From the NCBI RefSeq assembly GCF_963921235.1, contig NC_086097.1:66652001-66716000 (forward strand): a DNA stretch of 64,000 bases. The letters run 5' to 3'. This document shows positions 12,805 to 54,571 of the stretch, piece after piece. The stretch's first letter is position 1. Each line of letters begins with the position of its first letter. The stretch is from Mobula hypostoma. Its lineage: Eukaryota. The translations under genes and the position numbers were made by a program. Below the pieces are notes generated by a model. The model was not told the DNA's origin, did not search any database, and saw nothing but the letters and a program-made list of their open reading frames with translations.

Positions 12805-14275
12805 TTCAAGTGCACAGCTCCGAAGCCATATTTAAGTTTGCTCATGACACCACTGTCGTTGGCCAAATCAAAAGTGGCATTTAGGAAGGAGATTGAAAAT
12901 CTGGCTGAGTGGTGCCACAACAACAACCTCTCACTCAGTGTCAGCAAGGCCAAGAAGCTGATTATTAACTTCAGGAGGAGGAAACTGGAGAGCCATGGTG
13001 TTATCATTTCTGATTATCTGTTCTTGGCCCAGCACATAAGTGCAATTACGTGGAAAGCATGGCAGTGCCTCTACTTACTTAGAAGTTTGTGATAGTTTGG
13101 CACGTTATCTAAAACTTTGACAAACTTCTACCGATGCGTGATGGAGAGTACATAGACTGGTTGCATCATGGCCTAGTATGGGAACATCAATGCCCTTGAA
13201 TGGAAAATCCTACCAAAAGTAGTGGACACTGCCTAATCCATCACTGATAAAGCCCTCCCCAACACTGTGCATATCTACACACAACACTGTCGCAGGAAAG
13301 CAGCATCCATCACCCTGGCCATGCTCTCTTCACGCTGCTGCCATCAGAAAGGTGGTACAGGAGCCTCAGGACCCACACCACCAGGTTCAGGGACAGTTAT
13401 TACCCCTCAACCATCAGCATCTTGAACCAGAGGGATAATTTCACTCAACTTCACTTGACTTATCACTCTTTCCACAACTTATTAAAGTTCAAAGAAAATG
13501 AATTATCAAAGTACATATAAGTCGCCATATAAAACACTGAGATTTATTTTCTTGTGGCCATACTCAATAAATCTATAGAATAATAACCATAACAGAATCA
13601 ATGAAAGACCACCCAATGTTGGCATTCAACCAGAGTGCAGAAGATAACAAACTGTGCAAATACAAAAACAAAGAAATAATAATAATAAATAATACATATT
13701 GAGAACCTGAGATGAAGAGACTTGAAAGTGAATCTTTTGGTTGTGGGAATATTTCAACGATGGGGCAAGTGAAGTTGAGTAAAGTTATACCCTTTGATTC
13801 AAGAGCCTGATAGTTGAGGCATAATAACTGTTCCTGAACCTGTTGGTGTGAGTCCTGAGGCTCCTGAACCTTCTTCCTGATGGTAGCAAGGAGAAGAGTG
13901 CACGTCCTGGGTGGTGGGCTCTCTGATAAAGGATACTGCCTTCCCATGATAGCTTTTCATGTGGATGTGCTCAATGGTTAGGAGAGCTTTACTGTGATAT
14001 CTGCTTTATCCTCCTCCTATATGCTGATTCAACACCAGCTTTGATTCACTCTACAACAGCGTTGTCATCAGCAAACTTAAATATGGCATTGGGCCTGTGT
14101 TTAGCCACACAGTTATACGTATAAAACAAGTAGAGCAGGGGGCTAAACACCCAGCCTTGTGGTACACCTGTGCTGATGGAGATTGGGGAAGAGATGTTAT
14201 TGCCAATAACTGAGGTCTGCAAGTGAGGAAATCCAGGATCCAGTTTACACAAAGTACTGAGACCAAGGGACTGAG
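12805..14275. mobile_element. Two Rex1/Babar 3' fragments tail-to-tail (+ 12805-13470, - 13485-14275)
   Basis: ORFs 12838 (EWCHNNNLSLSVSKAKKLII) and 14046 (TGVPQG..SPLLY..FKFADD). Confidence 0.75.
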
Positions 14276-14815: not shown

Positions 14816-15899
14816 TTTTGGAGCTTATTGATTAATTTTGAAGGGATAATGTTATTGAATGCTGAGCTGTAGTTGATAAAAAAAACATCTTTGTTGTCCA
14901 GATGTTCCAATATGGAGATTTTCACTTTCAAGGATTCCTCATCTTATGTTCTTGATGTTTATTGCTTATTTATTATTATTAATATTTTAATATTTTTTCT
15001 TTTGTATTTTCACAGTTTGTTGTATTTTGCACACTGGTGCATGTCTGTCCTGTTGGGTACAGTCTGCCATTGATTCTATCATGTTTCTTGGATTTCCTAT
15101 GCCTGCAAGAAAATAAATCCCAGGGTTGTATATGGTGAACATATGTACTTTGATAATAAATTTACTTTGAACTTTGAATTTCAAAACTTTATGATTTTTA
15201 CTTTTATAAAATTGATGTTCCTATTACAAATTGAAACGCCAGGGTCTGAATCAGGCAAATTCAGTCAGATGAGAAAGCTGTAGATACACATTCCTACACC
15301 TTAACCATTGCATCCTGATATCATTTCCACTGGAGTTATGTAAACAGACCTGTTATCCACCTCTGTATCTGATCCTGGGGCATTCCATGGTGCAACCAAA
15401 CCAACAATGAAGAAACAAGTACCCATGTTTTGAAATTTTAAAAATATTATCTGGTAGTATTGCAAAAAAACAAATGTATGATCTTAAGGTGAGGTTTAAA
15501 TAATTGATGCAAATAAAAGACTTGAATTTCAGCATTCATGTTGCAAATGCAGATGAACCATAAAGCCAGTGATATGCACTCCAATCTTGTAAATAAGCCA
15601 AGAGTAGACTATCGCCTGTATAACTAGATATGCTCAGTGTGTAATGACACAAGATAAAACTGTCAGAAATAAAATACTGAGTAATATAAAGCCTAAATTA
15701 GCAGAGATTGCTTTTATCCACAGCCGACCTTTATCGTAGACTGTTGTACATGAACCAAATTGAGCTGCCGCAGGAAAGGACAGGTCAGTGCTGCCTGGAG
15801 CATGAATAAGTCGAGCAGCAAAAGCAACAATTGTATTAATCTGAACTGTCACAATATATTTATGGATCAATTCCCCAAAGGAAACAGTCCCATAATGTA

Positions 15900-16720: not shown

Positions 16721-18744
16721 TGTAACTAAATTACCCTATGGAACATTGCAGGGTATCTTAAACAAGAAACGTGAGTGAATCAACTGTGGGTAAGTAATTG
16801 GAATGGTAAAGTTTGGACTTTGTTTTGTTAGCCCACTGAATCAAGGCTAAGGAAGCTGGAGTGGTTTGAGTTTAAAGTGCAGGGTCAGCTTCTCTTGATT
16901 CTATACACATATCTGCCTCTATTGCTGAAGGCATCTACATAGCCACACTTGCGAAGGTGTCTCTCAAACAGTTCTCTCCCTCAACTTTCTGTGTCCATTT
17001 CCAGTGTAGCTTAAGTTGTGAAATCAGTTTATGAGGTTCAAGCTACATGATTTTGAGTTTCTTCCCTTGAAATTCCAACTTGCTTCACTGCTGCCCTATT
17101 TTTGAAATAACTTATATACAGTAAGGTTTTGTGGCTTTGGCTCAAAGAAAGGTAAGGAAACCATTTGCGGAATACCACCTAAGAACCTTCTCACCCCCCA
17201 CAACAAAAAAAAATTGTTGTTCTTACACTTTGAAATTGACCCATTAATGATAGTGATAAATCAAGGGCATGGAATATAATCAGTCCAGTGGATCCTAAAC
17301 ATACAACAGTGGTTGTAGAGCTACTGAATAACCTGGGCTGCATACTAATTTACACATCTTTAAGGTCATCATGTAGGGAAGCAGCATTTTGCATTTCCTT
17401 TGTTTAAGATCAAAGCACAAGAGAAAAGATGGTTCATGGACGTGGTTAGGCCAAACATAATGCATTGTAATAAAAATAGAAAATACTGTATCTTCTGTTT
17501 CTAGTTCAGATTTTTAGATCTGCAGTATGATTTACATTTAATTTACCGGGTGCTATTTAGAATACCCCACTATAGAAAGGGCATTAAAATCCTAAATAAC
17601 AAGCCACATAGATTTGCCATGTTGACAGTTGTTATAATGAGGATAGATTTCAGATACTGTGACTGTTTCTAGTGCCTCAGAGAAGGAACGAAGATTTATT
17701 CGAATATGCCTTGTCTGATAAATTGGACGTGATTAACTAACCTCCAACCTTTCTGTAAGGTAAAAATTTGCTTAGACACAATGATTTTCAAATAGATTGC
17801 AGGAAGTGCACTGGTGACATGAAAGACATTAACACTTCAAATAAGGTTATTAATGACAGTCATTATTGGGATTGATCAGGCGTCCCACAACACACCCGTT
17901 GATAAATTGTAATCTTCCAATAATGAATTTGACTTATAAAGATGCTTATTTTCCTTTTTTTCAAGATTAGGCTTACTCTCCAATTGCAAACTCTTCTTAA
18001 AGAACCTACTGAGAACCTACAGGTTGAACTTTAATATAATTTGATTATTATTATTCACTGCAAATAATTCTAAGACAGAAGATTTGTCTAGAACATTCAT
18101 TCTTACTAACTGCACTAAACATTTAAGTCTGGCTGAAGAAGTGACTTCAATTAAAAAAGAAACTGGAGGCAGAATATAACATGCTGATAAGATTACTAAC
18201 CAGAGATGAATTTCTAGGCAACTGTACTTATAAAATAGAAATTAAACCTGTACAAGCAGCTTTGTCATTATGGATCAGCAAGCAAGGATCAAGCATTCTG
18301 GCTTAGATCCATTTCACCAGATTCCTGCTCAAGGTGCATGTTATGGCCAGTTTAACCAGTGAACCTGTGTCTCACAGCCCTCTCAATGAAATGGTATTCC
18401 CCTTTAAATAAACTCGGGCCCACTCTTTGAGCATATAAACAAAAGATGTTGGAGATATTCAGTGAATAAGGCAGCTTCTGCAGAAAGAGAATCGGGGTTA
18501 ACATTTCTGTTTGATGGTCCATCATCAGCTCTGTCACCCCAAATTTGGCATGTGCATAATTATATGTTAAAATATCACCTCAAAAACATTTACACTACTC
18601 AACATTACAAATTATTAGACATATAATGTATTGAAATTCTTGTAAACAAGTTCAAATAGCCGGGCTAAGTCATTCTGGAGCCCATGCCTGGACTCATCAT
18701 GCAGTCTGCCAGTTTGGCTGCACAGGCCTTTTTGAGATGGCAAA

Positions 18745-21180
18745 TCATAGACACAACAGATTCTGCAGATGCTAGAAATACAAAATTAGAAACTCAGCAG
18801 GTCAGGCAGCATCAATGGAGGAGAATAAACAGTCAATGTTTTAGATCATAAACCATCAGGCATCGAAGCAGTAATAGGCCATTTACTCCACCATTCAATC
18901 ATGCTGATCCTTTTTTCATCCCCTCAGCCCCACTCCTCGTCCTTCTCCCCGCAACCTTCGGTGCCATGTCCAATCAAGAACCTATCAATCTCTGCCTTAA
19001 AAGCACCCAATGACCTGGCTTCCACAGCTGCCTATGGTAACAAATTCCACAAATTCACCACCCTCTCGCTAAAGAAATTTCTCTGCATCTGTTTTAAATG
19101 GATACCCCTCTATCCTGAGGTAGTGCCCTCTTGTCCTAGACTCCCCCACCATGGGAAACATACAAACTTTCCACTTTGGTCTTTGGGCCAAAACCCTTCA
19201 TCAGGACTAGAAAGTGAGGGGCAAGAAGCCAGAATAAGAATACTTGGGTAAGGGGAGGGAGTATAAGCTAGCAGCTGATAGGTGAGACCAGGTGTGGTGG
19301 AAGTTAGGTGAGTGGGAGAGAGGGGGGGTGGTTAAGTAAGAAGCTAGGAGGTGATAGATGGAAGAAGTAAAGGACTGAAGAATGAAGAATTTGATAGGAG
19401 ACGAGAGTGGACCATGAGAGAAACAGAAGGAGGGGTAACAGAGGGAAGTGAGAATAAGAGAAAGTGTATGTGAAAATCCAGAATGGGGAATCGAAAAAGA
19501 GAGACGGGAGAGGGGGAGAAATTACTGAAGTTTAAAAAATTGATGTTTATTCCATCATGGTGGAGGCTGTCAAGATGGAGTATGAGGAGTTCAAAGTAAA
19601 ATTTATTATCAGAGTACATACGTCATCACATACATCTCTGAGATTGCGGACATACAGTTGAAGTCAGACGTTTACATACACCTTAGCCAAAACTATCTAA
19701 CTCTGTTTTTTACAATTCCTGACATTTAATCCTAGAAAACATTCCCTGTCCTAGGTCAGTTAGGATCACTACTTTATTTTAAGAATGTGAAATGTCAGAA
19801 TAATAGTAGAGAGAATGATTTATTTTAGCTTTTATTCCTTTCATCACTTTCCCAGTGAGTCAGAAGTTTACATACACTTTGTTACTATTTGATAGCATTG
19901 CCTTTAAATTGTTTAACTTGGGTCAAACATTTTGGGGTAGCCTTCCACAAGCTTCTCACAGTAAGTTGCTGGAATTTTGTTCCATTCCTCCAGACAGAAC
20001 TGGTGTAACTGAGTCAGGTTTGTAGGCCCCCTTGCTCGCACATGCTTTTTCAGTTCTGCCCACAAATTTTCTATCGGACATAAGGCGAATAGAGCAGGGA
20101 GCACTAGTGCTAGTGCTGATGGTGATTGTGGAGGAATCCAAAATGACTGGGGTCTGTGAGTGAGAAACTCCAAGATCCAATTGCACAAGGGAATATTGAG
20201 GCCCAGCTCTTGCTCCTCCAACCTGAGAGTGGTCTTATTGTTGCAGTAGAGGAGGCTATGGACTGACATATCGGAATGGGAATGGGAAGTAGAATTAAAA
20301 TGGTGCCCTCTGGGAAATTCTGCCTTTCATGGAGGATAGAGCAAAGATGCTTCAAAGAAGTGGTACCCCAAATTCAATCAGGTCTCACTGATGTACAGGA
20401 GGCCACACCAGGAGCACTGGATAAAGTAGATGAATACACTCAATGACTTGGTCTCCACAGCCACTTGTAGCAATGAATTCCACAGATTCACCAACCTCTG
20501 ACTAAAGAAATTCCTCCTCATCTCCTTTTGAAATGGGCACCTCTCTATTCTGACATTGTGCCCTTTGGACCTGAACTTCCCTGTGATAGGACTTCTCCAC
20601 ATCCACTCCATCTAGGCCTTTCAACATGTGATAGGTTTCAATGAGATCCATCCACATTTTAAATTCTAAATTCCAGCAAGCACGGGCACAGAGCCATAAA
20701 AACGCTCCTCGTATGATAAGCCTTTCAAACAACCTCCTTTGAACCCTCTCCAATGTCAGCACATATCTCTTAGATAAGGGGTCCAAAACTGCTCACAATA
20801 CCACGAGTGAGGCCTCACCAATGCCTTATAAAGCCTCTGCATTAGATCCTTGTTTTTTTCCTATTCTAGTCCTCTCAAAAGGAATGCTAACATTGGTGGG
20901 GGGAGGGGTTGGAGGTGTAGCGCTTGTATCACTTGTAAGTGAGAGAAGGGGATCAGTGGGGAGGAAGAAGTGCATACAGGAGAGTCACGTTGACAGCAAT
21001 CCCTGCAGAAGGTGGAGAGAGGAGAGGGCGAGTGGTGAGAGAGAAAGATGTTTTGAGTGTCAGAATCCGGTTGAAGATGGTGGAAGTTATGGAGAATGAT
21101 GTGCTGGATGTGGTGGCTCATGAGGTGGACAGGCATTGATGAGGGGAATTCTATCCTTGTTATGACAGCAGGAATATAGG
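18745..21180 (-). mobile_element. Penelope-like element interrupted by CR1 (about 18850-19160, 20425-20880), Rex1 (about 19590-20205) and an SB-like Tc1
   Basis: Pseudo-LTR pieces at 18750-18840 and 19180-19210; ORF pieces IILHNFHHLQPD (20861) and TLRLEEQ. Penelope sequence resumes across each insert. Confidence 0.7.
19655..20078 (-). mobile_element. Sleeping Beauty-subfamily Tc1 fragment: complete right IR/DR plus transposase C-terminus
   Basis: TA|cagttgaagtcagacgtttacatacaccttagcc outer DR and cccagtgagtcagaagtttacatacact inner DR (about 19851-19878). Protein PIENLWAELKKHVRARGPTNLTQLHQFCLEEWNKIPATYCEKLVEGYPK, then a frameshift to LTQVKQFKGNA. Confidence 0.9.
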
Positions 21181-21834
21181 GTGAGGACAGCTGTATGGAA
21201 ATTGGAGCTGGACAGGACTGAACAAACAGAATCTCTTCCCCAAGCATCATTGCACAAAGCAGAGTTGGCTCCAACAGAGAGTTAGGCCTCAGTTAGTATA
21301 CCGCAGAGCTTGTAGGTCAAGGCCTTCAAAATATTTTAAATGTCCTGAACAGTCAGATACTGTATATTCTAAGACCTTTCAGAAAGATTTCAATACTTTA
21401 AACAAAAATTAAGCTTAACGAAAATACCATAAAATACTTACAAATAAATAAGAACATTAAAATACAGAAAAATAATTCCACTGGTTCAGCAAGCGTGCTC
21501 GAATGAATGAGGTTGCTAACTGTGTGTCTGCCTTCCCTAGCAGAAGGCCCAGAATCCAAGCACACCTCAGCACCCCTAAAATTCTACCATTGGGCTCAGT
21601 GGTGAGTCCATCTGTGACTTTAATGGGCTCCACTGACTGGGCTGTTAAATTTGGTGACAAGCAGAAGGTATTATATTCTGTCCTTCAACAATCCAAAGAG
21701 AAGCTGGAAACTTTCCACCAGGGTGGTAATCAAAAATGATCATTGGTGTTGAAATGTACTAGTATAATTGCCAATGAAGTTAGATAATTTTTTTAAAATT
21801 TATATTTGTGTTATGTAAATATATGAAGTGAAGT

Positions 21835-30219: not shown

Positions 30220-30582
30220 TACATTATTGCTGCACTTGTCGCAATAGTGAATTGGCCACAAAGAGACAGAATAGTCATTCAACCTTTAAAGCTATTCCAC
30301 AGTAGTTTACATTTGAAGGGTTACGATTATCTGAGGAAAGTGCATTGGTGCAGAGCTGTCATTTGCTACAGAGATGTAGAAACCATTTAAATAATTAGGA
30401 GCAGGAATTCATTCACTGAAGTTTCATTATCTGCTGAATATGGGAGGATCTACAAAGTGTTGTGAGGAAGAATATGCATATCTGATTTCTCCTAGCTGAT
30501 TACTGGTGATAACAATTGGAGTGTGAAGAGGGTCACTTGGTTTACATTGATCTCACATGAAATGTCATGTGTCATGGTGATT

Positions 30583-33496
30583 TTAGATTAGATTAGATTC
30601 AACTTTATTGTCATTGTGCCGAGTACAGATACAAAGCCAATGAAATACAGTTAGCATCTGACCAGAAATGCAAAGAATAGTGTTGTTTACAAAATAACTG
30701 TGAATAAAAAGTAAGTGCTACAGCACACAAAATATAGAAGTACTGAGACAGTACAATATGGGTGCAATACTGCTTAGCATTGTGATGAGAGGTTCAGCAG
30801 GGTCACAGCCTCAGGAAGAAGCTCTTCCTGTGCCTGCTGGTGCGGGAGCGGAGGCTCCTGTAGCACCTACCGGATGGGAGGAGAGTAAAAAGTCCATGGT
30901 TAGGGTGAGATGCATCCTTGATAATGCTTTTTGCCCTGCCCAGGCAGCGTTTATGGTAGATGTTCTCAATGGTGGGCAATTGGGTGCTGATAATCTGCTG
31001 GGCAGTTTTCACCAAACGCTGGAGTGCTTTGCGGTCTGATATGGGACAATTGGCATACCACACTGAGATGCAGTTGGTGAGTATGCTCTCAATGGTACAG
31101 CGGTAAAAGTGCGTCAGTATCCTGGGACAGAGGTGAGCTTTCTTGATGCTCCACAGGAAATAAAGGTGCTGTTGTGCCTTTTTGATCAGAATGGAGGAGT
31201 TCAGGGACCAGGTGAGATCCTCAGAAATGTGGACACCAAGGAATTTGGAGCTTGATATATGCTCTACTACAGCTCCGTTGATGTAGATGGGGACGTGAGT
31301 GTGGCTCCTAGCATGCCTGAAGTCCACAATGATCTCCTTTGTCTTCTGGGTGTTAAGGACCAGGTTGTTGTCAGCATACCACGCGGCCACGTGCTGGACC
31401 TCGTCCCTGTAGGCCATCTCGTCATCCCCTCTGATCAGGCCAACCACCGTGGTGTCGTCTGCGAACTTGATTATGGAGTTAGAACTATGTACAGGAACAC
31501 AGTCATAGGTGAAAAGGGAGTACAGAAGAGGGCTCAGCACACAGCCTTGAGGCATGTTTGTGTTCAGGGTGAGAGTGGAGGAGGAGAGGTTGTCTAACTT
31601 AACCGTTTGAGGTCTGTTAGTCAGAAAGTCCAAGGTCCAACTGCAGAGGGATGAGCTGATACCAAGCTGGCAAAGTTTGGCGATCAGCTTGGAGGGGATC
31701 ACAGTATTGAATGCCAAACTAAAGTCAATGAACAGCATTCTGACGTAAGAGTTGGGGCTGTCCAGGTGGGTCAGGGCAGAGTGAAGTGCTATGGAGATGG
31801 CGTCCTCTGTAGACCTGTTGGTGAGATAGGCAAATTGATGGGGGTCCAGGGTAGTGGGCAGACAGGATTTCAGATGTGATAGAACCAGTCTCTCAAAGCA
31901 CTTTGCAATGATGGGGCTGAGTGCAACTGGACGGAAGTTATTCAGGCCCGTGGCAGTGAAATGCTTTGGCACTGGCATGATGGTGGCGATCTTGAAACTT
32001 GTGGGGACAACTGCCTGTGCCAGGGACAGATTAAAAATGTCCGTGAAGACCCTGGCCAACTGCACTGCACAGACTCTGAGCACACGGCCAGGTATTCCAT
32101 CTGGACCAGCTGCCTTCCGTACATTCACCCTGCTCAGGGTGGCGCAAACATCGGAGGTGGGAAGTGAGAGAGGCAGTTCACCAGGTGGGAGATCGGCTTT
32201 GAGGGTGACCTCCTTGTTCTCTCGGTCAAAGTGAGCATAGAAGTAATTGAGCTCATCAGGGAGGGAAGCAGAGCTGGAAGGGGGCACAGACTAGGTGGTC
32301 TGAAGTCTATAATGACCTGCATGCTATGCCACATGCGCCGGGGATCCGAGGAGTTGAAATGCTCCTCGATTCTCTGTTTGTATAAGTGTTTAGCCTGAGA
32401 GATTCCCTTCCTCAGGTTGGCCCTGGGTGAGCTGTAAGCCTCCCGGTCTCCAGACCTGAAGGCTGAATCTCTGGCTTTGAGCAGGAGGTGAACTTCTCTG
32501 TTCATCCATGGTTTCTGATTGGGGAAAACTTATATTTGTTTTTGTGATGTCACTCTATCTACACACTTGTTGATGTGTTCAAGGACAGAGTTGGTATATA
32601 AGTCAATGTTAATCTGAGAGTCTGTGGTGGCATGGGCAGCAAACTGTGTGCTGGAATTGGTGCTGAAGAGCAGAGTCAGCACCCTCCAGCCAGATCTTTA
32701 TAGTCTTCATTGTGGTTTCACAGGTTCAATGACTGGGCTATACTTGAGAAGCAGAAACACTGAAAGATGGTTGGACTGTCCCAGGTGGGGGAGGGTAGTG
32801 GCTTTGTAAGCATCAACCACATTTGTGATCTAAGGTTTTATTACCCCTTGTGCTGCACGATACATTTTGGTAAAATCTTGAAAGCACGGTACGTAGGTTA
32901 CAATGAATTAAAGTCCCCAGCGACAATAAATGCTCCATCTGGATGCAATGTCTGCAGCTTGCTAATAGCAGCACTGAGGTCTTTTATGGCTACTTTAGCA
33001 TTAGCATCCGGTGGAACATAAACTGCGACAGCAATGATGCATGTAAACTCTCGAGGTTGATAAAAATGTCTGCACTTAATAATCAGGTATTCCACATCAG
33101 CAGAGCAGTAAGTGCCAGCAATGGTAGAGTTAGTACACCATGATCGATTCACGTAGATGCATAAACCACCTCCCCTACTTTCACCTGTCGCTGTTGCAGC
33201 TCTGTCAGCCCTGAAGACCGTGCACCCTTCCAGTTCCAGCACGTTGTTTGGGACATCACTGTTTAGCCACGTCTCCGTAAAAAACATGACGTTGCAATCC
33301 ATAAGCCTTCTTTGTGTGAGTGTCCAAGTCCTTAGTTCGTCCGGCTTGTTTATCAGAGACCGAGCATTGGCGAGAAAGATGCTAGGTAGTGCTGGCCTGT
33401 GTGGATTTAGCTTGGCCTAGCACACAAACCTCCATGCTTCCCCCGTCTTCGTTTACGGTCTCAACACTGGCACCGGGCCCTTCTGGTCAGAGCGAG
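30583..33496 (-). mobile_element. Rex1/Babar LINE (APE endonuclease + RT), frameshifted, with (TCTAA)n tail
   Basis: EN ORF 32898-33302 (FTETWL, GGGLCIYV, VAGDFN), linker 32134-32505, RT 30803-32287; tail ttagattagattagattcaactttattgtcatt. Confidence 0.92.
30803..32287 (-). pseudogene. Reverse transcriptase portion of Rex1 ORF (494 aa open, separated from EN by frameshifts)
   Basis: [40 protein letters not shown] and FADD motifs. Confidence 0.9.
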
Positions 33497-44364: not shown

Positions 44365-45320
44365 CAAGGGTCCCCAACCTCTTTTGCACCGCGGACTGGT
44401 TTAAAATTGACAATATTCTTGCGGTCCGGCCGACCAGGGGTGGGGGGGTGGGGTGTTAATCATGACCAGAATATAGGTGATAAATCAACAATAAGTCACT
44501 TATAAGTGGCTAATACACTCAATTCCGTTTCTAAAAGGGTTTATCTAACAAATTTAATATTAAACACACAGCGCATATTTTCCTCGCATGAATATAGTGA
44601 TAAGTCAATTTTAAGTTACTTATAAGTCAATAGCATCATAACATTTTAAGTAACGTTTGGATATTAAACACACAGCGTATATTTTCCTCATACGAACATG
44701 TAAAATCATTGCAACACACCAATATTGCTGAATCAGTGGGAGCCCTGGGCTTGTTTTCCTGCAACAAGATAGTCCCGTCGAGGGGTGAGGGGAGACGGCG
44801 ATACTCGAAGGGGGTTCCTTATGTCCAGTCTATTCCGCAATTTAGTTTTCATTGCATTCATTGTAGAAAACTCCGCTTCGCAGCGATACGATGTTGGAAA
44901 TGGAAGCAACGTTTTCAGTGCTTTCATGGCTGTCTCAGGATATTCAGCCTTGACTTTGATCCAGAATGCCAACAGAGATGTTATGTCAAACATACTTTTC
45001 AGCCCGCCGTCATTTGCGAGCTCAAGGATTTGATCTTTTTCACGTGCTGACATGGATGATTCACTGGAGACATTCACAAGTGGGTCATGGACCCATTCCT
45101 TTACACGTCTTGGGTCATTTGCGTCTTGGGTCACTGATGACCTCGCGTGGGTAGTGACCTCGCGTGTGTTCAAGTTCAACAGTGGGTGTGACAGGGAATG
45201 AAGAAAGGTGCAGCTGACTCATATCGTTTCATATCGCCAAATCATATTGTTTCCTCACGGCCCGTAGCACATGCTTTGCGGCCTGGTACCGGTCCGCGGC
45301 CCAGTGGTTGGGGACCACTG
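44365..45320 (-). mobile_element. hAT/Charlie (MER1-like) deletion derivative
   Basis: TIRs caagggtccccaacc / ggttggggaccactg; TSD ggccgcag / ggctacag. ORF 44733-45179 FWIKVKAEYPE...LLPFPTSYRCEAEFS...KTKLRNRL is a hAT dimerisation domain. Confidence 0.88.
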
Positions 45321-45670: not shown

Positions 45671-48600
45671 TATCATGTATTTAATATAGCGGTAATGTTT
45701 GAGTAATATTGTAAATGTATCGTTTGGTTAAGCATTCTTGCTCATTTAAATATTTAGTTACAGGTTATATATAAAAGTACACGAATGTCATCATACATCA
45801 ACACACTACTACGTCATATGTGCGTGCCTCACTTAAAGTAAAAACAAAAATAAGATGTTCTCCTGGGCTCCCATCTTTATCTTGCAATTAGTTTTATGTT
45901 TTGGGTTACAAAACATAACAGTGGCAACGAGAAAGTTTTAAATGAACACAAGATGACTATCTACCTGTGGAAGCACAGCAAGACGTTCAGGTTAAAAGCA
46001 AAATTGCAGTGAGATGTTCACATTTTTTAAAAAAAGCAGTGTACTATATATTCTTCAGAAGAGACAGATGTGGTTGAGTTTTTAAAAAGGCAGAAAAGGG
46101 GCAAATTCATGGGTTCATAAACAGTGAGTACTGAGTGATAATCATCTTAAGTTTTTAAAAAAGCAGAAATGGATGGCTAAATCGGAAAGATAGACATGTT
46201 TGATTGCATAAGGAGATAACCGGATGTTGTATACTTAATGGATTGAGGAGTATTTTGAAACAAATGAAATAGTCAGTAAGAAGAAAGTACCAGTTATGTT
46301 GAGTGCATTGGATTTAAAAACATACAGTTTCCTTGGAATTTTAACTGCTCCAACCAAACCAGCTGAAATGAGCTTTGCTGATATCATGAAAGTATTGCAA
46401 GAACATTTAGAACCTGATTGCAGAACACTTCAGGTTTCATAAGTGGAATCAAAAGGAAGGGGAATCCATTTCAGAGTATTGAAGAATTGAAGAAATTGCC
46501 TGAGCATTGTCAGTTCAGCGATGGGCTTAATGATGCATAGAGATATTATTTAGATTGTGGAATGGTACAAGAAAGTATTCAAAAAGGCTCCTAACTGAAG
46601 CACAACATACATTTAAAGGACCAGTTAAAATTTCTGTGTCAATGGAAACAGCAGCTAGAGATACAAATGAGTTGCAGTCAGCAATGAAGTGAGTGTGAAC
46701 AAAATTACAATGCCTAAACAGAAACCTGACTGGCCAAACAAATCATGTTACTATTGTGGCAGGAGCAAAACTTGCAGAAAATGCAACAAAGTAGAACACA
46801 TACAAAGAGCATGTGAGGCAGACAGATATAAATGGACTTCACGAGGAAGAGAAAATAATTAAAGTCAAGTTACAGTTTCAAAAAGAGTACTATTCTGCAT
46901 GCTGTTGATGACAATTCTGATAATGGTGAGAGGGACACGGGACTGAGCAGCCTTGAGATTTGCATGCTGTTGATGACAATTCTGATAATGGTGAGAGGGA
47001 CACGGGACTGAGCAGCCTTGAGATTTGCAATGAGAAAACCAACAATAGACAAGTATTATGGCTTACACCAGAAGTGAACAGCAAATTAATTAAAATAGGA
47101 TTGGACACTGGTTTGGCTGTTTCAGTCATTCCACAAAATGAGTTTGATTGGCATTTCAAAGATACTGAACTGAAGCCTGCAGATATCCAACTAAGAACTT
47201 ATACTGGAGAAGAGGTAACTCCTGTGGGAATGATATTCGTAACTGGGAAATACAACAACCAACAAGCCACATTGAGTTTGCATGTCATAAAAACAAGAGA
47301 GCCAGCTTTGTGGGTTTGAGTGGCTGAGAGAACAACAGCTTGGTTGGAGATGCATTCACCATCTGCATGCCATATCCCCTGCAAAAGAGTCAACTGAAAG
47401 TGAGTTAAGAAAGGTATTGGATGATACCACAGAAGTGTTTAACGATAGCATTGGAAAACTCAAACATATCAAGGGTACAGCTGTGGTAAATGAAAATGCC
47501 ACACCCAAGTATTGCAAAGCACACCCTGGTTCCTTATTTCATCTGTGACAAAGTAGCTGGTGAGTTAGATTGCCTGGAGGCTGAAAGGATCTTTGCAAGA
47601 TTGACTGGAGCCCATGGGCAACACCGCTGGTCCCAGTAGCCAAAAAGAATGGGTCTGTCAGGATCTGAGGTGATTTTAAGGTCACCACCAACCCAGTACT
47701 GCTGAGAATAAAGGATATATTTGCAAAACTTTCTGGAGGGAAACACTTCAGCAAAGTGTACTTAGCTGAGACCTACCTACAAAAGGAGATGGAAGAAGAG
47801 TCCAAAGTGTTTCTCACCACAAACACTCACAAAGGGCTTCATTGCTATAATAGGCTTGCTGTTGGAGTAACATCTACACCTACACTCTGGCTATGAACCA
47901 GGAGCTGCAAGGCTGTTCAGGCACTCAGTGTTTCCTGGATAACATCACTGTTACTGGTAAAGATGATGAGGAGCATCTCTAAAATCTCAAGACAGTACTA
48001 AAAAGATTAGAAGATTATGGGCTCAGAGCACGAGACAACATTTGTGAATTCTTTAAACTAAGCATCACTTACTGTGATCACACTAATAATGCATAAGAAT
48101 TGCACAAATGTGCTGAGAAAATTCAAGCAGTGGAGAATGGCCCAAGGGCAAAGCCCATGTCGTAGTTGTGGTCCGTTTTAGGATTTGTCAATTACTATAA
48201 CAGGTTTCAGTCAAACCTGCCTACTGTTCTTTAATCATTGAAGTCATTACTACAGATCGGGAAGAAATAGCTATGAACAAAGCAGTGTGAGGTGGCTTTC
48301 AGAAATGTAAAGGAAATGGTAACATCAGACACTGTACTCACACATTATAACCCACGTCATCCAGTAAAGCTCATCATGAACTGTTTGGGATGCCAACACT
48401 CGAGGAAAGGTGTCCAGAGCTGTCAGAGTCAGCCTTGCAGTCCCGGAGTCAACTCCTACAACCACCATGGAGGAGGCACCAGAACCTGGGATTGTTTCTC
48501 AGCCAAGTCTCACCTGCCAGGGTGCCCCTCTTGTCAGGAAAGATGTTATCCCTCAAGAGTAAGAAATCCTCCGCAGTGATGAAATCTAGAGGCTGATTGG

Positions 48601-50408: not shown

Positions 50409-53400
50409 TTTTTTATATTTCAAAATATACTTTATTCAAAAATAAAATTATATACAATAAACCATTCAATAATTTTTACGTTTCCATCATAGTCTGTACA
50501 TATCCATACTTATGGCCACCCACGTGGCACTCCAGGTGTTCACCTTACCACATCATTGTTGAGGGGTATACTCCCCACCACCCGACCCCTCCCACTCCCA
50601 CGGGTGGAGAAACCTATACTGTGGTCCTTCCCCACCGGGCCCTTGCGGTGGCTGCACCGAGTTTCAGTGCGTCCCTCAGCACGTACTCCTGCAGCCGACA
50701 ATGTGCCGGTTGGCAGCATTCTCCCACGGACATCTCCATGTGCTGGTAGATCATCAAGTTTCAGGCCGACCAAAGAGCGTCTTTCACCAAGTTGATGATC
50801 TGCCAGCAGCACCGGATGTTGGTCTCCATGTGTGTCCCCGGGAACAGCCCGTAGATCAGAGAGTCCTCTGTTACGCAGCTGCTGGGGATCAAACATGACA
50901 CTAGCCTGTCCATCCTCCTCCACACCTTCTCTGCGAACTCACAGTGTGCAAAGAGGTGGGTCACAGACTCCGCCTCACTGCAGTCCTCCGGTGGGCAGTG
51001 AGGTGTGGAGACGATGTTCCGGGCGTACAGGAGGGCTCTGACTGGGAGGACCCCTCTCACTGCCAGCGAGGCAAGGTCTTGGTGCCTGTTGGTGAGATCT
51101 GGCGATGAGGCATTTTGCCAGATGAACTGGATGGTTTGCTCAGGGAACCACCCCACTGTGTCCATCACGTCCTTCTCCTGCAGTGCCTGCAGGACATTAC
51201 GTGCCGACCACCGCCTGATGGCCCTGTGGTCAAAGGCGTTCTCCTGGAAGAACTTTTCTATGAAGGACAGGTATGGGGCAACGACCAGCTGACTGGGGCA
51301 TTGCGCGGGAGTGGGGCCAACCCATCTTCGTAGCCAGGGCAACAGGTAGAACCTGGGCACATAGTGGTACTTGGTGCCCACATACTTGGGTTCTATACAC
51401 AACCTGATGCAGCCACACACGAAGCTGGCCATCAGGGTGAGGGCAACATTGGGGACGTTCTTGCCCCCATTGTCCAGGGACTTGTGCATGACGGTCCATC
51501 TCACCCTCTCCATCTTGGATCCCCAGACGAATCTGAAGACAGCTCGGGTGATTTCCGAGCTGTAGGAGCGGGGGACGGATCACACCTGTGTCAAGTACAG
51601 CAGTCCTGAGAGCACCTCACACCTGATGACCAGATTCTTGCCCGTTATCGATAGGGAGCGCTCTCCCCACAGTCCCAGTTCCTGTTTCACCTTGGCAGTC
51701 TGCTCCTGCCAGTTCTTATTGCACGCCTCGGCCCCTCCGAACCAGATCCCCAACACCTTCACGTGATCAGACCTGATGGTGAAGGGGACACTGGATCGGT
51801 CGAGCCAGTTGCCGAAGAGCATGGCTTCGTTCTTCGTGCGGTTGACCCTGGCCCCCGACACTAGCTCGAACTGTTCGCAGATGTCAATCAACCTGCGAAC
51901 TGACCTCGGATCAGAGCAGAAGACAGTGACATCGTCCATATACAGGAAGGTTTTCACTTGGGTCCCTCCACTACCTGGCAACGTCACCCCTCTTATGCCC
52001 TCATCCCTCCTGATGGCTTCCGCAAAGGGTTCTATGCAGCAGACAAACAAGACGGGAGTGGGGAGAGCCCTGCCTGACTCCAGACCTGATGGGGAAGCTG
52101 TCTGTTTCCCACCCGTTGACCTGGACTGAACTACGGATGTCTGTGTAAAGCAGTCTGATCCAATTCCAGATACCCTCCCCAAATCCCATTTTGGAGAGCA
52201 CGTCCGCCATGTACGTGTGCGATATCCTGTCGAAGGCTTTCTCCTGGTCCAAGCTGACCAGGCAGACGTTCAACCCCCTGTCCTGCACGTAGGCAATGGT
52301 GTCCCTCAGCAGCGCGAGGCTGTCTGAGATCTTCCTGCCCAATACAGCACAGGTTTGGACCGGGTGGATCATTTGTCCCAGAGCAGACTTGACCCTGTTG
52401 GCAGTAGCCTTGGACAGGATCTTGTAATCCACATTCAGGAGAGAGATGGGCCTCCAATTTCTAATGTCCTCCCTTTCCCCCTTCTGCTTGTAGATGAGGG
52501 TGATGATGCCCTTCTTCACGGACTCTGACATGCTGCCGGCCAGAAGCTTAGCGTTGTACACTTCCAGCAGGTCTGGGCCCATACAGTTCCACAGAGCAGA
52601 ATACAACTCGACCGGTAAGCCGTTACTTCCGGGAGTCTTACTCGACTCAAAGGAACGGATGAAGCCTATCCGCTCGTCCAGGGTCAGTGGCTGATCCAAA
52701 CTCTCCCACTTGCCGTCGTCTAAGACCTGCATGATAGACAACAGGAAGTTGCGGGAGGCTGTGGATTCTGTGGCCTTTCCATCGTACAGACCGGCATAGA
52801 AGGACTTGCAGATCCTCAGTATGTCAGTCTGCGAGGACGCGACTGAACCATGCTCTTCCTTAAGGTTGAGGATCACAGAGCTCCCCCTGTGCACCTTTTG
52901 GAAGAAAAAGCGTGAGCACATCTCGTCCTGCTCCACAGTTTGGACCCTTGATCGGAAGATGATCTTGGAGGATTCGGCGGCGAGGTGCTGGGCTTGCCGG
53001 CCCTTCACCTCTCCCAAATCCTCCCTGACATCCACCCCCTTTGACTGCAGAAGGAGAAGTTGTTGCAACTCTGTCTGGAGTTTACGCAGTTCCCTCTGCT
53101 CCTGCCTTGCCTTCTGGATACCCTTGCGAATGAAGAACCTCTTAATGTTCTCCGTGGTGGCTTCCCACCAGTGAACAGGGGAATCAAAGAAGGCTTTCAA
53201 GGTTCTCCAACCTGTGTACTCCCTCTCTAGTTCCTCGATGTTCTCTGGGGTCAGCAGCTTTACGTTCAGCTTCCAAGTCCCCCTGCCTGCCTTCTGGTCC
53301 TCCCGTCAGAGACAGGTGGCTCTCAGAAGGCAGTGGTCAGAGAAGAACACCGGCGTGACATCAGTGGACCTGACCGTGAGGGACTCTGACGGGAAGAGGA

Positions 53401-54571
53401 AGTCAATCCGGGAGCGGGCTTTGTCGTCCGATCGTGTCCAGGTGGCTTGTGGCTGTGCTCCACCTGTGGAGGTGCCAGTGGCTGTCTTCACCATTTCCCT
53501 CAGGAGTCTGGAGGTACTGTCCAGCCTGCCATTAGCACTGCCGGGTCCTCCAGCCACATCAATGGTGCAGTTGAAGTCTCCGGCCAGAACGACCGGCTGG
53601 GACGTCACCAGCAGCTGTGGGAGCTGCTCGAAGACGGCCAGCCGCTCGCTCCGCACGGGGGAGGCAGACACGTTGATCAGCCGGAGCGGAGTGCCCCGGT
53701 ATTTGACGTCTGCTACCAGGAGGCGACCCGCAGCCACCTCTTTAACTTGGGTGATTGAGAAGTTGCCTCCCCGCAGCAGAATCCCCAGGCCAGAAGCGCG
53801 ACAATCATTGCCCCCCCGACCACACAGACAAACCTTTGGTCCACCACCGTGACCACCTCCGGTAGTTACAGAGGTGTGGTAGTCCACACTCCTGGAGGAA
53901 GGTCACGTTGGCCTTTACAGTGTCCAGGTACTGGAGCGTGCTGACGCATTGCCCAGTACTCTTCAAACTGCACACGTTCAAGCACGCCAATTTAAGGTCT
54001 GCCATCATTGTAAGTCCTTTATTTTGGCTGCTGTCCATCCTCACCCTTGCAGTCCTGAGCCTTCATGCCTTTGTGAGGTCTTTCACCTTCTGTGGGCTCA
54101 GGTACTGCAGGTAATACTCCCCCAGGTGTGGCAGTTCTGGTTCTGAGCCTGGGGGGGTTGTTTACTTCCAGGGCTGCTTCCCCTTCAGGCTGCTGGGTGC
54201 CGGCCGTGGCTCTGCTCCCGGATTCCCGGAGCTGGGTGTCTCTGCTGCTCTCTGCCTCCTGTACTAGCAGACCTTCTCCACTCTCTCTCCTCCTCTTCGC
54301 CTGTTCTGCCAGCCACCTCCTCCGCCGGGGCTGCTGGCCTCCCCCAACTCCTTCCTCCTCTGAAGAGGACAGGGTACCAGAGGCTGTGTGGTTCCCTGCC
54401 CTTTTCTTTTGTTCCTCCGCCTTCTGTCGTTTGGCCGCCGCCTTTTGGACCTTTTCGCGTTTGGCCACGACACTCTATCCGCTTTCCACCTCGGCTCTCC
54501 CCTCCTCCATGTACTCCTCCTCGTCTTTTGGTGGGTCCTGAAGGGTCTGCAAGGGGGTGCCGGGCCTTGGG
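50409..54571 (-). mobile_element. L1/Tx1-clade LINE, truncated within ORF1
   Basis: Poly(A) at 50409 and 9-bp TSD gcacatcat (50400-08, 54572-80). ORF1 C-terminus stops at 54019, followed by ORF2. Confidence 0.92.
50614..54005 (-). pseudogene. L1/Tx1 ORF2 (APE endonuclease, RT, C-terminal Cys/His finger), several frameshifts and stops
   Basis: MADLKLACLNV..FLQE; LAGDFN; SDH; NWRPISLLNVDYKIL; LDQEKAFDR; GVRQG; YMDD; CPPEDC...HLFAHC. Confidence 0.9.

Follow-up and report, generated by a model that had tools for sequence, protein, structure and literature searches.

A right-end fragment of a Sleeping Beauty-clade Tc1 transposon in a probable ray genome and its probable horizontal origin

A nested transposon end in the window

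[quoted passage not shown] The fragment sits inside a LINE, and together they split an older repeat, giving the following arrangement.

19182 to 20337, minus strand: older Penelope-like repeat in two pieces, 19182-19587 and about 20209-20337, with the LINE/transposon block between them
19588 to 19654, minus strand: 3' tail of a Rex1-type LINE, the target of the transposon, 78 to 85% alike to copies at 13486-13544 and 15116-15173
19653 to 19654, no strand: TA target dinucleotide at the right end, inside the 3' tail of the Rex1-type LINE
19655 to 19877, minus strand: right IR/DR end of the SB-clade Tc1, about 223 bp, differing from the full-length element L001 by 13 mismatches in 223 bp and by 3 gap columns
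19655 to 19686, minus strand: outer direct repeat, the predicted terminal transposase binding site, 2 bp longer than the inner one (as defined in the accessible part of PMC5224488)
19850 to 19880, minus strand: inner direct repeat, located by repeat comparison and alignment
19885 to 20077, minus strand: transposase tail, last 63 codons, corresponding to SB residues 277-339 and starting 2 residues before the catalytic glutamate
20078 to 20079, no strand: deletion junction from SB sequence to Rex1 RT sequence, with 1,215 bp of the element gone; loose ends lie at 20078 in sequencing runs X2, X24, and X9
20079 to 20208, minus strand: degraded RT-coding piece of the same Rex1-type LINE (tblastn E 4e-8), 70 to 76% identical in nucleotides to copies at 14170-14267 and 31608-31668

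A preliminary description of this DNA had seen a TA followed by an inverted-repeat end of about 225 bp with outer and inner direct repeats, and the TA at 19653-19654, the ∼223-bp inverted repeat, and both direct repeats are what we recover. The direct repeats lie 196 bp apart, at 19662-19684 and 19858-19880, with a likeness of 91%. The 64-kb window has exactly two occurrences of their 12-nt core, each of them in the SB fragment; 0.23 occurrences are expected by chance at one mismatch, and a count of 2 was reached in 3 of 100 shuffles. Two direct repeats, the outer 2 bp longer than the inner, are at the right end the hallmark of the IR/DR subgroup in the portion of PMC5224488 available, which also gives that subgroup a left inverted repeat with an HDR enhancer and paired ends. 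Neither an SB left end nor any further Tc1 piece was found elsewhere in the 64-kb window by tblastn and motif scan.

Only 424 of 1,639 bp survive. With the left 1,215 bp went the left end, the part coding for the DNA-binding domain, and the two aspartates of the D,D34E catalytic triad; the fragment begins at residue 277 and retains the glutamate. The transposase tail is further damaged by a one-base frameshift near 19930 and by a stop that comes one codon early (19885-19887), and the copy falls short of an intact element of about 1.6 kb with a 340-aa ORF. The TA is present on the surviving side only, the opposite flank having been lost to the deletion. Because it has a single end, lacks the DNA-binding domain, and is frameshifted, this copy is inert and unable to move.

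An uninterrupted copy of the LINE tail has the same TA, at 13561-13562, where the transposon sits, and the two Penelope-like pieces match adjoining stretches (14669-14396 and 14395-14281) of another copy of that repeat. The RT sequence past 20078 lies at least about 0.55 kb further into the Rex1-type LINE than the target site, so that one deletion at 20078 removed three quarters of the SB element together with at least about 0.55 kb of Rex1. The order of events indicated by the nesting is Penelope-like repeat, Rex1-type LINE, transposon, and finally deletion. Flanks and empty copies thus agree with the earlier proposal of SB nested in Rex1 nested in Penelope. We take the LINE to be Rex1 from its RT plus ALKBH8_N layout, and the older repeat is presumably Penelope, to judge from an HTH_animal-like ORF in a longer copy.

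Several other repeats were noted in the window. Two 3' pieces that we assume to be CR1, 75% alike, lie beside the block at 18843-19161 and 20420-20890, and the first also interrupts the Penelope-like repeat. A longer Penelope-like copy at 27.7-28.6 kb contains an ORF resembling HTH_animal proteins. The minus strand carries a near-complete Rex1-type LINE at 30580-33416, with 85% amino acid identity to a Mobula birostris model and 79% to carp and Prochilodus proteins; this LINE, too, may have passed between rays and teleosts like those described in the accessible text of PMC13343379. The host control was a GC-rich LINE of L1/Tx1 type (50764-53902, minus strand) that has pieces of endonuclease, RT, and zf-RVT, and weak hAT-type or Gypsy-type domain matches fall at 2496-2939, 44736-45218, 46671-46859, and 48277-48576. 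A crude splice-site scan and a Pfam search of 256 ORFs (106 long and 150 shorter ones, leaving out ORFs under 55 aa and some of 55 to 89 aa) gave no host exon and returned just transposon domains and two sub-threshold matches. An Rfam search of the window gave no match.

Relationship to Sleeping Beauty

The fragment was compared with two full-length elements, L001 and L003 (1,639 bp, TA on both sides), found by a motif scan of metagenome contigs. The L001 protein has 340 aa, differs from SB100X at ∼8 of 228 aligned residues by hand count, and is 98.5% identical to a protein cluster (P0025) with salmonid-labeled members. The label salmonid-type, which we use for L001, L003, and runs X2, X24, and X9, rests on this protein likeness.

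Over 428 columns, the fragment is identical to the right ends of L001 and L003 at 391 and 390 positions, respectively (∼91%), which bears out the SB-clade identity suggested at the outset. The local alignment score against L001 is 664, compared with a best of 33 in 100 shuffles, and the K2P distance is 0.08; 13 mismatches fall in the 223-bp inverted repeat and 16 in the 194 bp of coding DNA. The surviving coding part is 91.8% identical to L001 (178/194) and so, over that part alone, exceeds the 80% coding identity that Jia 2022 (PMC9777934), in the sections available, reports inside the SB clade, against 61% to SB-like elements. The same sections give a TIR identity of 65% within the SB clade and 33% between SB and SB-like elements. 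Here the long TIR typical of the SB clade matches the right inverted repeat of L001 at 209 of 227 positions and its left one at 158 of 233; the fragment is therefore a right end, and its reading as a left SB end can be discarded. The spacer between the direct repeats had been described as a conserved non-coding sequence, and it is indeed identical to that of L001 at 146 of 158 positions (92%); the left and right spacers of L001 itself agree at 104 of 169.

At the protein level, the sole PDB match of the transposase tail is the SB100X structure 5CR4 (E 3.9e-22). The first frame agrees with L001 at 40 of 48 residues, or 41 of 49 when the next lysine is included, in line with the count of about 41 of 49 given beforehand for the SB C terminus. 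As a control we used an unrelated Tc1 (L001:223-1224, minus strand) that adjoins the SB element and has about 36% amino acid identity to SB. It matched at 19 of 48 residues and gave no blastn match under E 1; the resemblance is therefore one particular to the SB clade. The fragment found no match in a plasmid collection, and viral and prokaryote contigs yielded neither a motif match nor related loci.

The fragment has in common with Sleeping Beauty (SB10/SB100X), and with the salmonid-type Tc1 elements of nature from which SB was rebuilt, a right IR/DR whose direct repeats are of the 14- and 12-type, the TA target, the transposase tail, and the 91% nucleotide identity to full-length elements coding for a near-SB100X protein.

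A distinct family in the host

Three proteins of the window are, among named relatives, nearest to Mobula models, in keeping with the elasmobranch surroundings that had been surmised. Among 127 matches of the SB tail, the closest named one is a Mobula hypostoma gene model (44/47), and teleost-linked proteins agree at 38 to 41 of 48 residues. In one 161-aa stretch, the L1-type ORF is 87% identical to M. hypostoma, 60% to newt, and 47 to 53% to six named teleost proteins; another stretch is 66% identical to basking shark. The Rex1 ORF (85% to M. birostris, at most 79.5% to others) is the weakest of the three pointers to a ray, since Rex1 moves between rays and teleosts according to the accessible text of PMC13343379. 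From these repeat-derived proteins we regard the host as likely a myliobatiform ray.

The TTC33 isoform X3 RefSeq model of M. hypostoma (P0002, XP_062905703.1) ends in about 70 residues of SB-family transposase tail, which is either an exonised SB copy or a gene-model artefact. Another protein, P0003, has a tail close to the ray family (42/47), and the unnamed proteins P0027 and P0184-P0195 have variant residues of their own in the tail; all of these may represent further SB-clade subfamilies.

The SB tail has several residues in common with characiform and sparid proteins. A tree of 63 residues places both the tail from the window and the Mobula protein in an open fork that is not part of the salmonid clade (support 96/95); 10 of the 14 inner branches are open.

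Words of the fragment are held by 24 sequencing runs, and four of these (X21, X2, X24, and X9) were aligned to 17000-21500 at 80% likeness, leaving out X15-X20, with small word shares, and organisms A, C, D, F, H, and I. X21 is a run of the host species, since its contigs match the unique flanks without a difference over 1,779 and 417 nt; among the X21 contigs listed, none bridges the SB-flank junctions. Summed depth in X21 is about 1.4-2.3e5 on the SB part and 17-30 on single-copy DNA, a ratio of about 1e4 that is not a copy number but shows that the SB family in the host is large. In X2, X24, and X9 the SB part stands at a depth of 4e4-1e7, and the flanking repeats have any depth in 5, 9, and 6 of 30 bins, respectively. 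These three runs carry the letters of L001.

The window copy and L001 are separated by 32 substitutions, 22 of which are at listed sites and could be classed, the other 10 being outside the listed rows. At 9 of the 22 classed sites the host family agrees with L001, and the change is private to the window copy. At the remaining 13, X21 keeps the window letter almost throughout, and X2, X24, X9, and L001 differ. At site 19770, for example, the other letter has 0 of a depth of 175,139 in X21, while site 19961 is 8% mixed. The host family therefore differs from Sleeping Beauty and the salmonid type at 13 to 23 of about 424 sites, and the window copy, which is in addition truncated and dead, has drifted from its own family by 9 to 19 substitutions.

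The host family is thus a distinct ray subfamily and not strictly the salmonid one, and the uniform, near-fixed letters across so deep a family make it look like the offspring of one founder. The preliminary description had named the salmonid Tc1 subfamily. Its placement in the SB clade stands, but the strict salmonid subfamily is excluded by the 13 near-fixed differences in X21 and by the position outside the salmonid clade in the weak 63-residue tree. Contamination was also considered, and the deep X21 family with near-fixed letters of its own speaks against it.

Probable arrival of the family in rays

Over 62 codons, the tail and L001 differ with a dS of 0.089 (upper 95% bound, about 0.27) and a dN of 0.084, giving a dN/dS of about 0.95. 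With dN close to dS and a non-coding spacer that is 92% identical, purifying selection does not account for the likeness. The split between rays and teleosts dates to about 462 Ma (PMC13343379), and DNA transposons are neutral in evolution within vertebrate genomes (PMC7070016), as stated in the parts of the two papers available, so that vertical descent would not be expected to leave a dS and a spacer of this kind. Our proxy for host divergence, the L1 protein with 47 to 53% amino acid identity to teleosts, points in the same direction as the low dS of the element. Together with the 391/428 identity, these values favor horizontal transfer over vertical descent, as had been proposed from the first reading.

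We consider it probable, at roughly 80%, that the SB family entered the ray lineage by horizontal transfer from the bony-fish pool, likely once, and then multiplied. The direction, into rays, is one we infer from the breadth of the clade in ray-finned fishes and from the uniform ray family. As far as its accessible sections go, the survey of Jia 2022 (PMC9777934) credits SB to 107 ray-finned fishes plus a single snail, SB-like elements to 255 ray-finned fishes plus three others, and to chondrichthyans just ZB-like elements, in one species, with no SB or SB-like element listed there; loss and arrival in rays fit this distribution better than inheritance does. The host described here, likely a ray, would belong to a group without SB or SB-like elements in that survey. 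The donor need not have been a salmonid, to judge from the position of the tail outside the salmonid clade and the residues that it has in common with characiform and sparid proteins.

An active SB-clade founder would thus have passed from the bony-fish pool into the ray lineage. Its transposase would have attached to the direct-repeat pairs, made its cuts at the outer repeats, and inserted copies at TA dinucleotides, a mechanism taken from what the available text of PMC5224488 describes for SB. The founder would then have multiplied into a host-specific subfamily, and the window copy would have inserted at the TA in the LINE tail, later to be cut by the deletion and to decay.

Transfer out of rays, or from an unsampled third lineage into both groups, would make the ray family the older one and the seed of the salmonid-type elements. 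This would suit the tree, in which neither the window tail nor the Mobula protein joins the salmonid clade, and the residues common to characiform and sparid proteins, as well as the 9 to 19 substitutions of the window copy, which possibly represent a long time if the lineage evolves slowly. We nevertheless think it improbable, because the diversity of the clade sits in 107 ray-finned species of 33 orders (in the available part of PMC9777934), the near-fixed letters of the ray family resemble a single founder, and most inner branches of the tree are open.

A bony-fish host, or an assembly error that placed salmonid or vector DNA in the window, is very improbable indeed. The window offers no host exon and the listed X21 contigs no bridge across the junctions, but in X21 the family, with letters of its own, reaches about 1e4 times the depth of single-copy DNA, a chromosome-scale M. 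hypostoma gene model holds another copy that agrees in the diagnostic residues, the SB element occupies a TA that the surrounding LINE also has in an empty copy, and three window proteins point to Mobula. Least credible of all is vertical descent from a jawed-vertebrate ancestor with the likeness kept by strong constraint or slow ray evolution: elasmobranchs do evolve slowly, but a dS and dN both of about 0.09, the 92% identical spacer, the neutrality of DNA transposons and the age of the split given above, and an L1 of the same window with only about 50% protein identity to its teleost relatives leave it hardly any room.

Horizontal entry from the bony-fish pool has close precedents. In Kuraku et al. 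2012 (PMC3516227, accessible part), the Group 1/DTSsa1 Tc1 transferred between lamprey and teleosts is common to hosts about 500 My apart at 95 to 99% identity with a Ka/Ks near 1, the same argument as ours; that family is a different one, without amplification from a cartilaginous fish, and a parasite link was proposed for it. Rex1 and L2 LINE transfers between rays and teleosts (PMC13343379, 2026) involve the same pair of host groups and document the route already, but in the text available they concern retrotransposons, with no SB, whereas the element here is a DNA transposon. The ZB-like Tc1 of one chondrichthyan (Table 1 of Jia 2022, PMC9777934) is likewise a DD34E Tc1 common to teleosts and a cartilaginous fish; it belongs to another clade, and the SB and ZB groups share 52 to 54% of coding DNA and 20 to 30% of TIR in the sections available. 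More broadly, the accessible text of PMC7070016 counts 975 vertebrate transfers, 93.7% of them involving ray-finned fishes and Tc1/mariner being the most frequent.

Our search of the open literature turned up no SB-clade element described from a ray, repeat databases (Repbase, Dfam) and subscription journals lying outside it. By term search, cartilaginous fishes are unmentioned in the main text of PMC7070016 and of bioRxiv 2024.12.18.629015, and a preprint of 2026 on mobulid genomes, in its available part, reports DNA transposons just as a total, with no SB-clade element in rays. In PMC12361510, Tc1/mariner elements make up 2.3% in rays and 0.14% in sharks, skates and rays exceeding sharks, and the portion available names neither families nor transfer.

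What is new here is the host group; the SB family and the process of transposon transfer, including that of ray-teleost LINEs, are well known. The window copy itself is an inert fragment, and transfer as a phenomenon is common. A larger claim can be made only tentatively, and we hold it to be rather less than an even bet: that a single SB-clade invasion gave rise to thousands of copies in myliobatiform rays, explaining part of the Tc1/mariner excess over sharks, that it was spliced into at least one host transcript (the TTC33 model of Mobula hypostoma), and that intact members persist as an independent natural SB branch with its own transposase and end variants.

The ray SB family would be a testable source of the Tc1/mariner excess reported for rays in the accessible text of PMC12361510, and a single-founder family of high copy number would provide a datable marker of DNA exchange between teleosts and rays. 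It would also supply natural sequence variants of a transposon that is used in gene therapy. The SB clade, listed so far from ray-finned fishes and one snail, would then include cartilaginous fishes as hosts, on the far side of a split of about 460 My.
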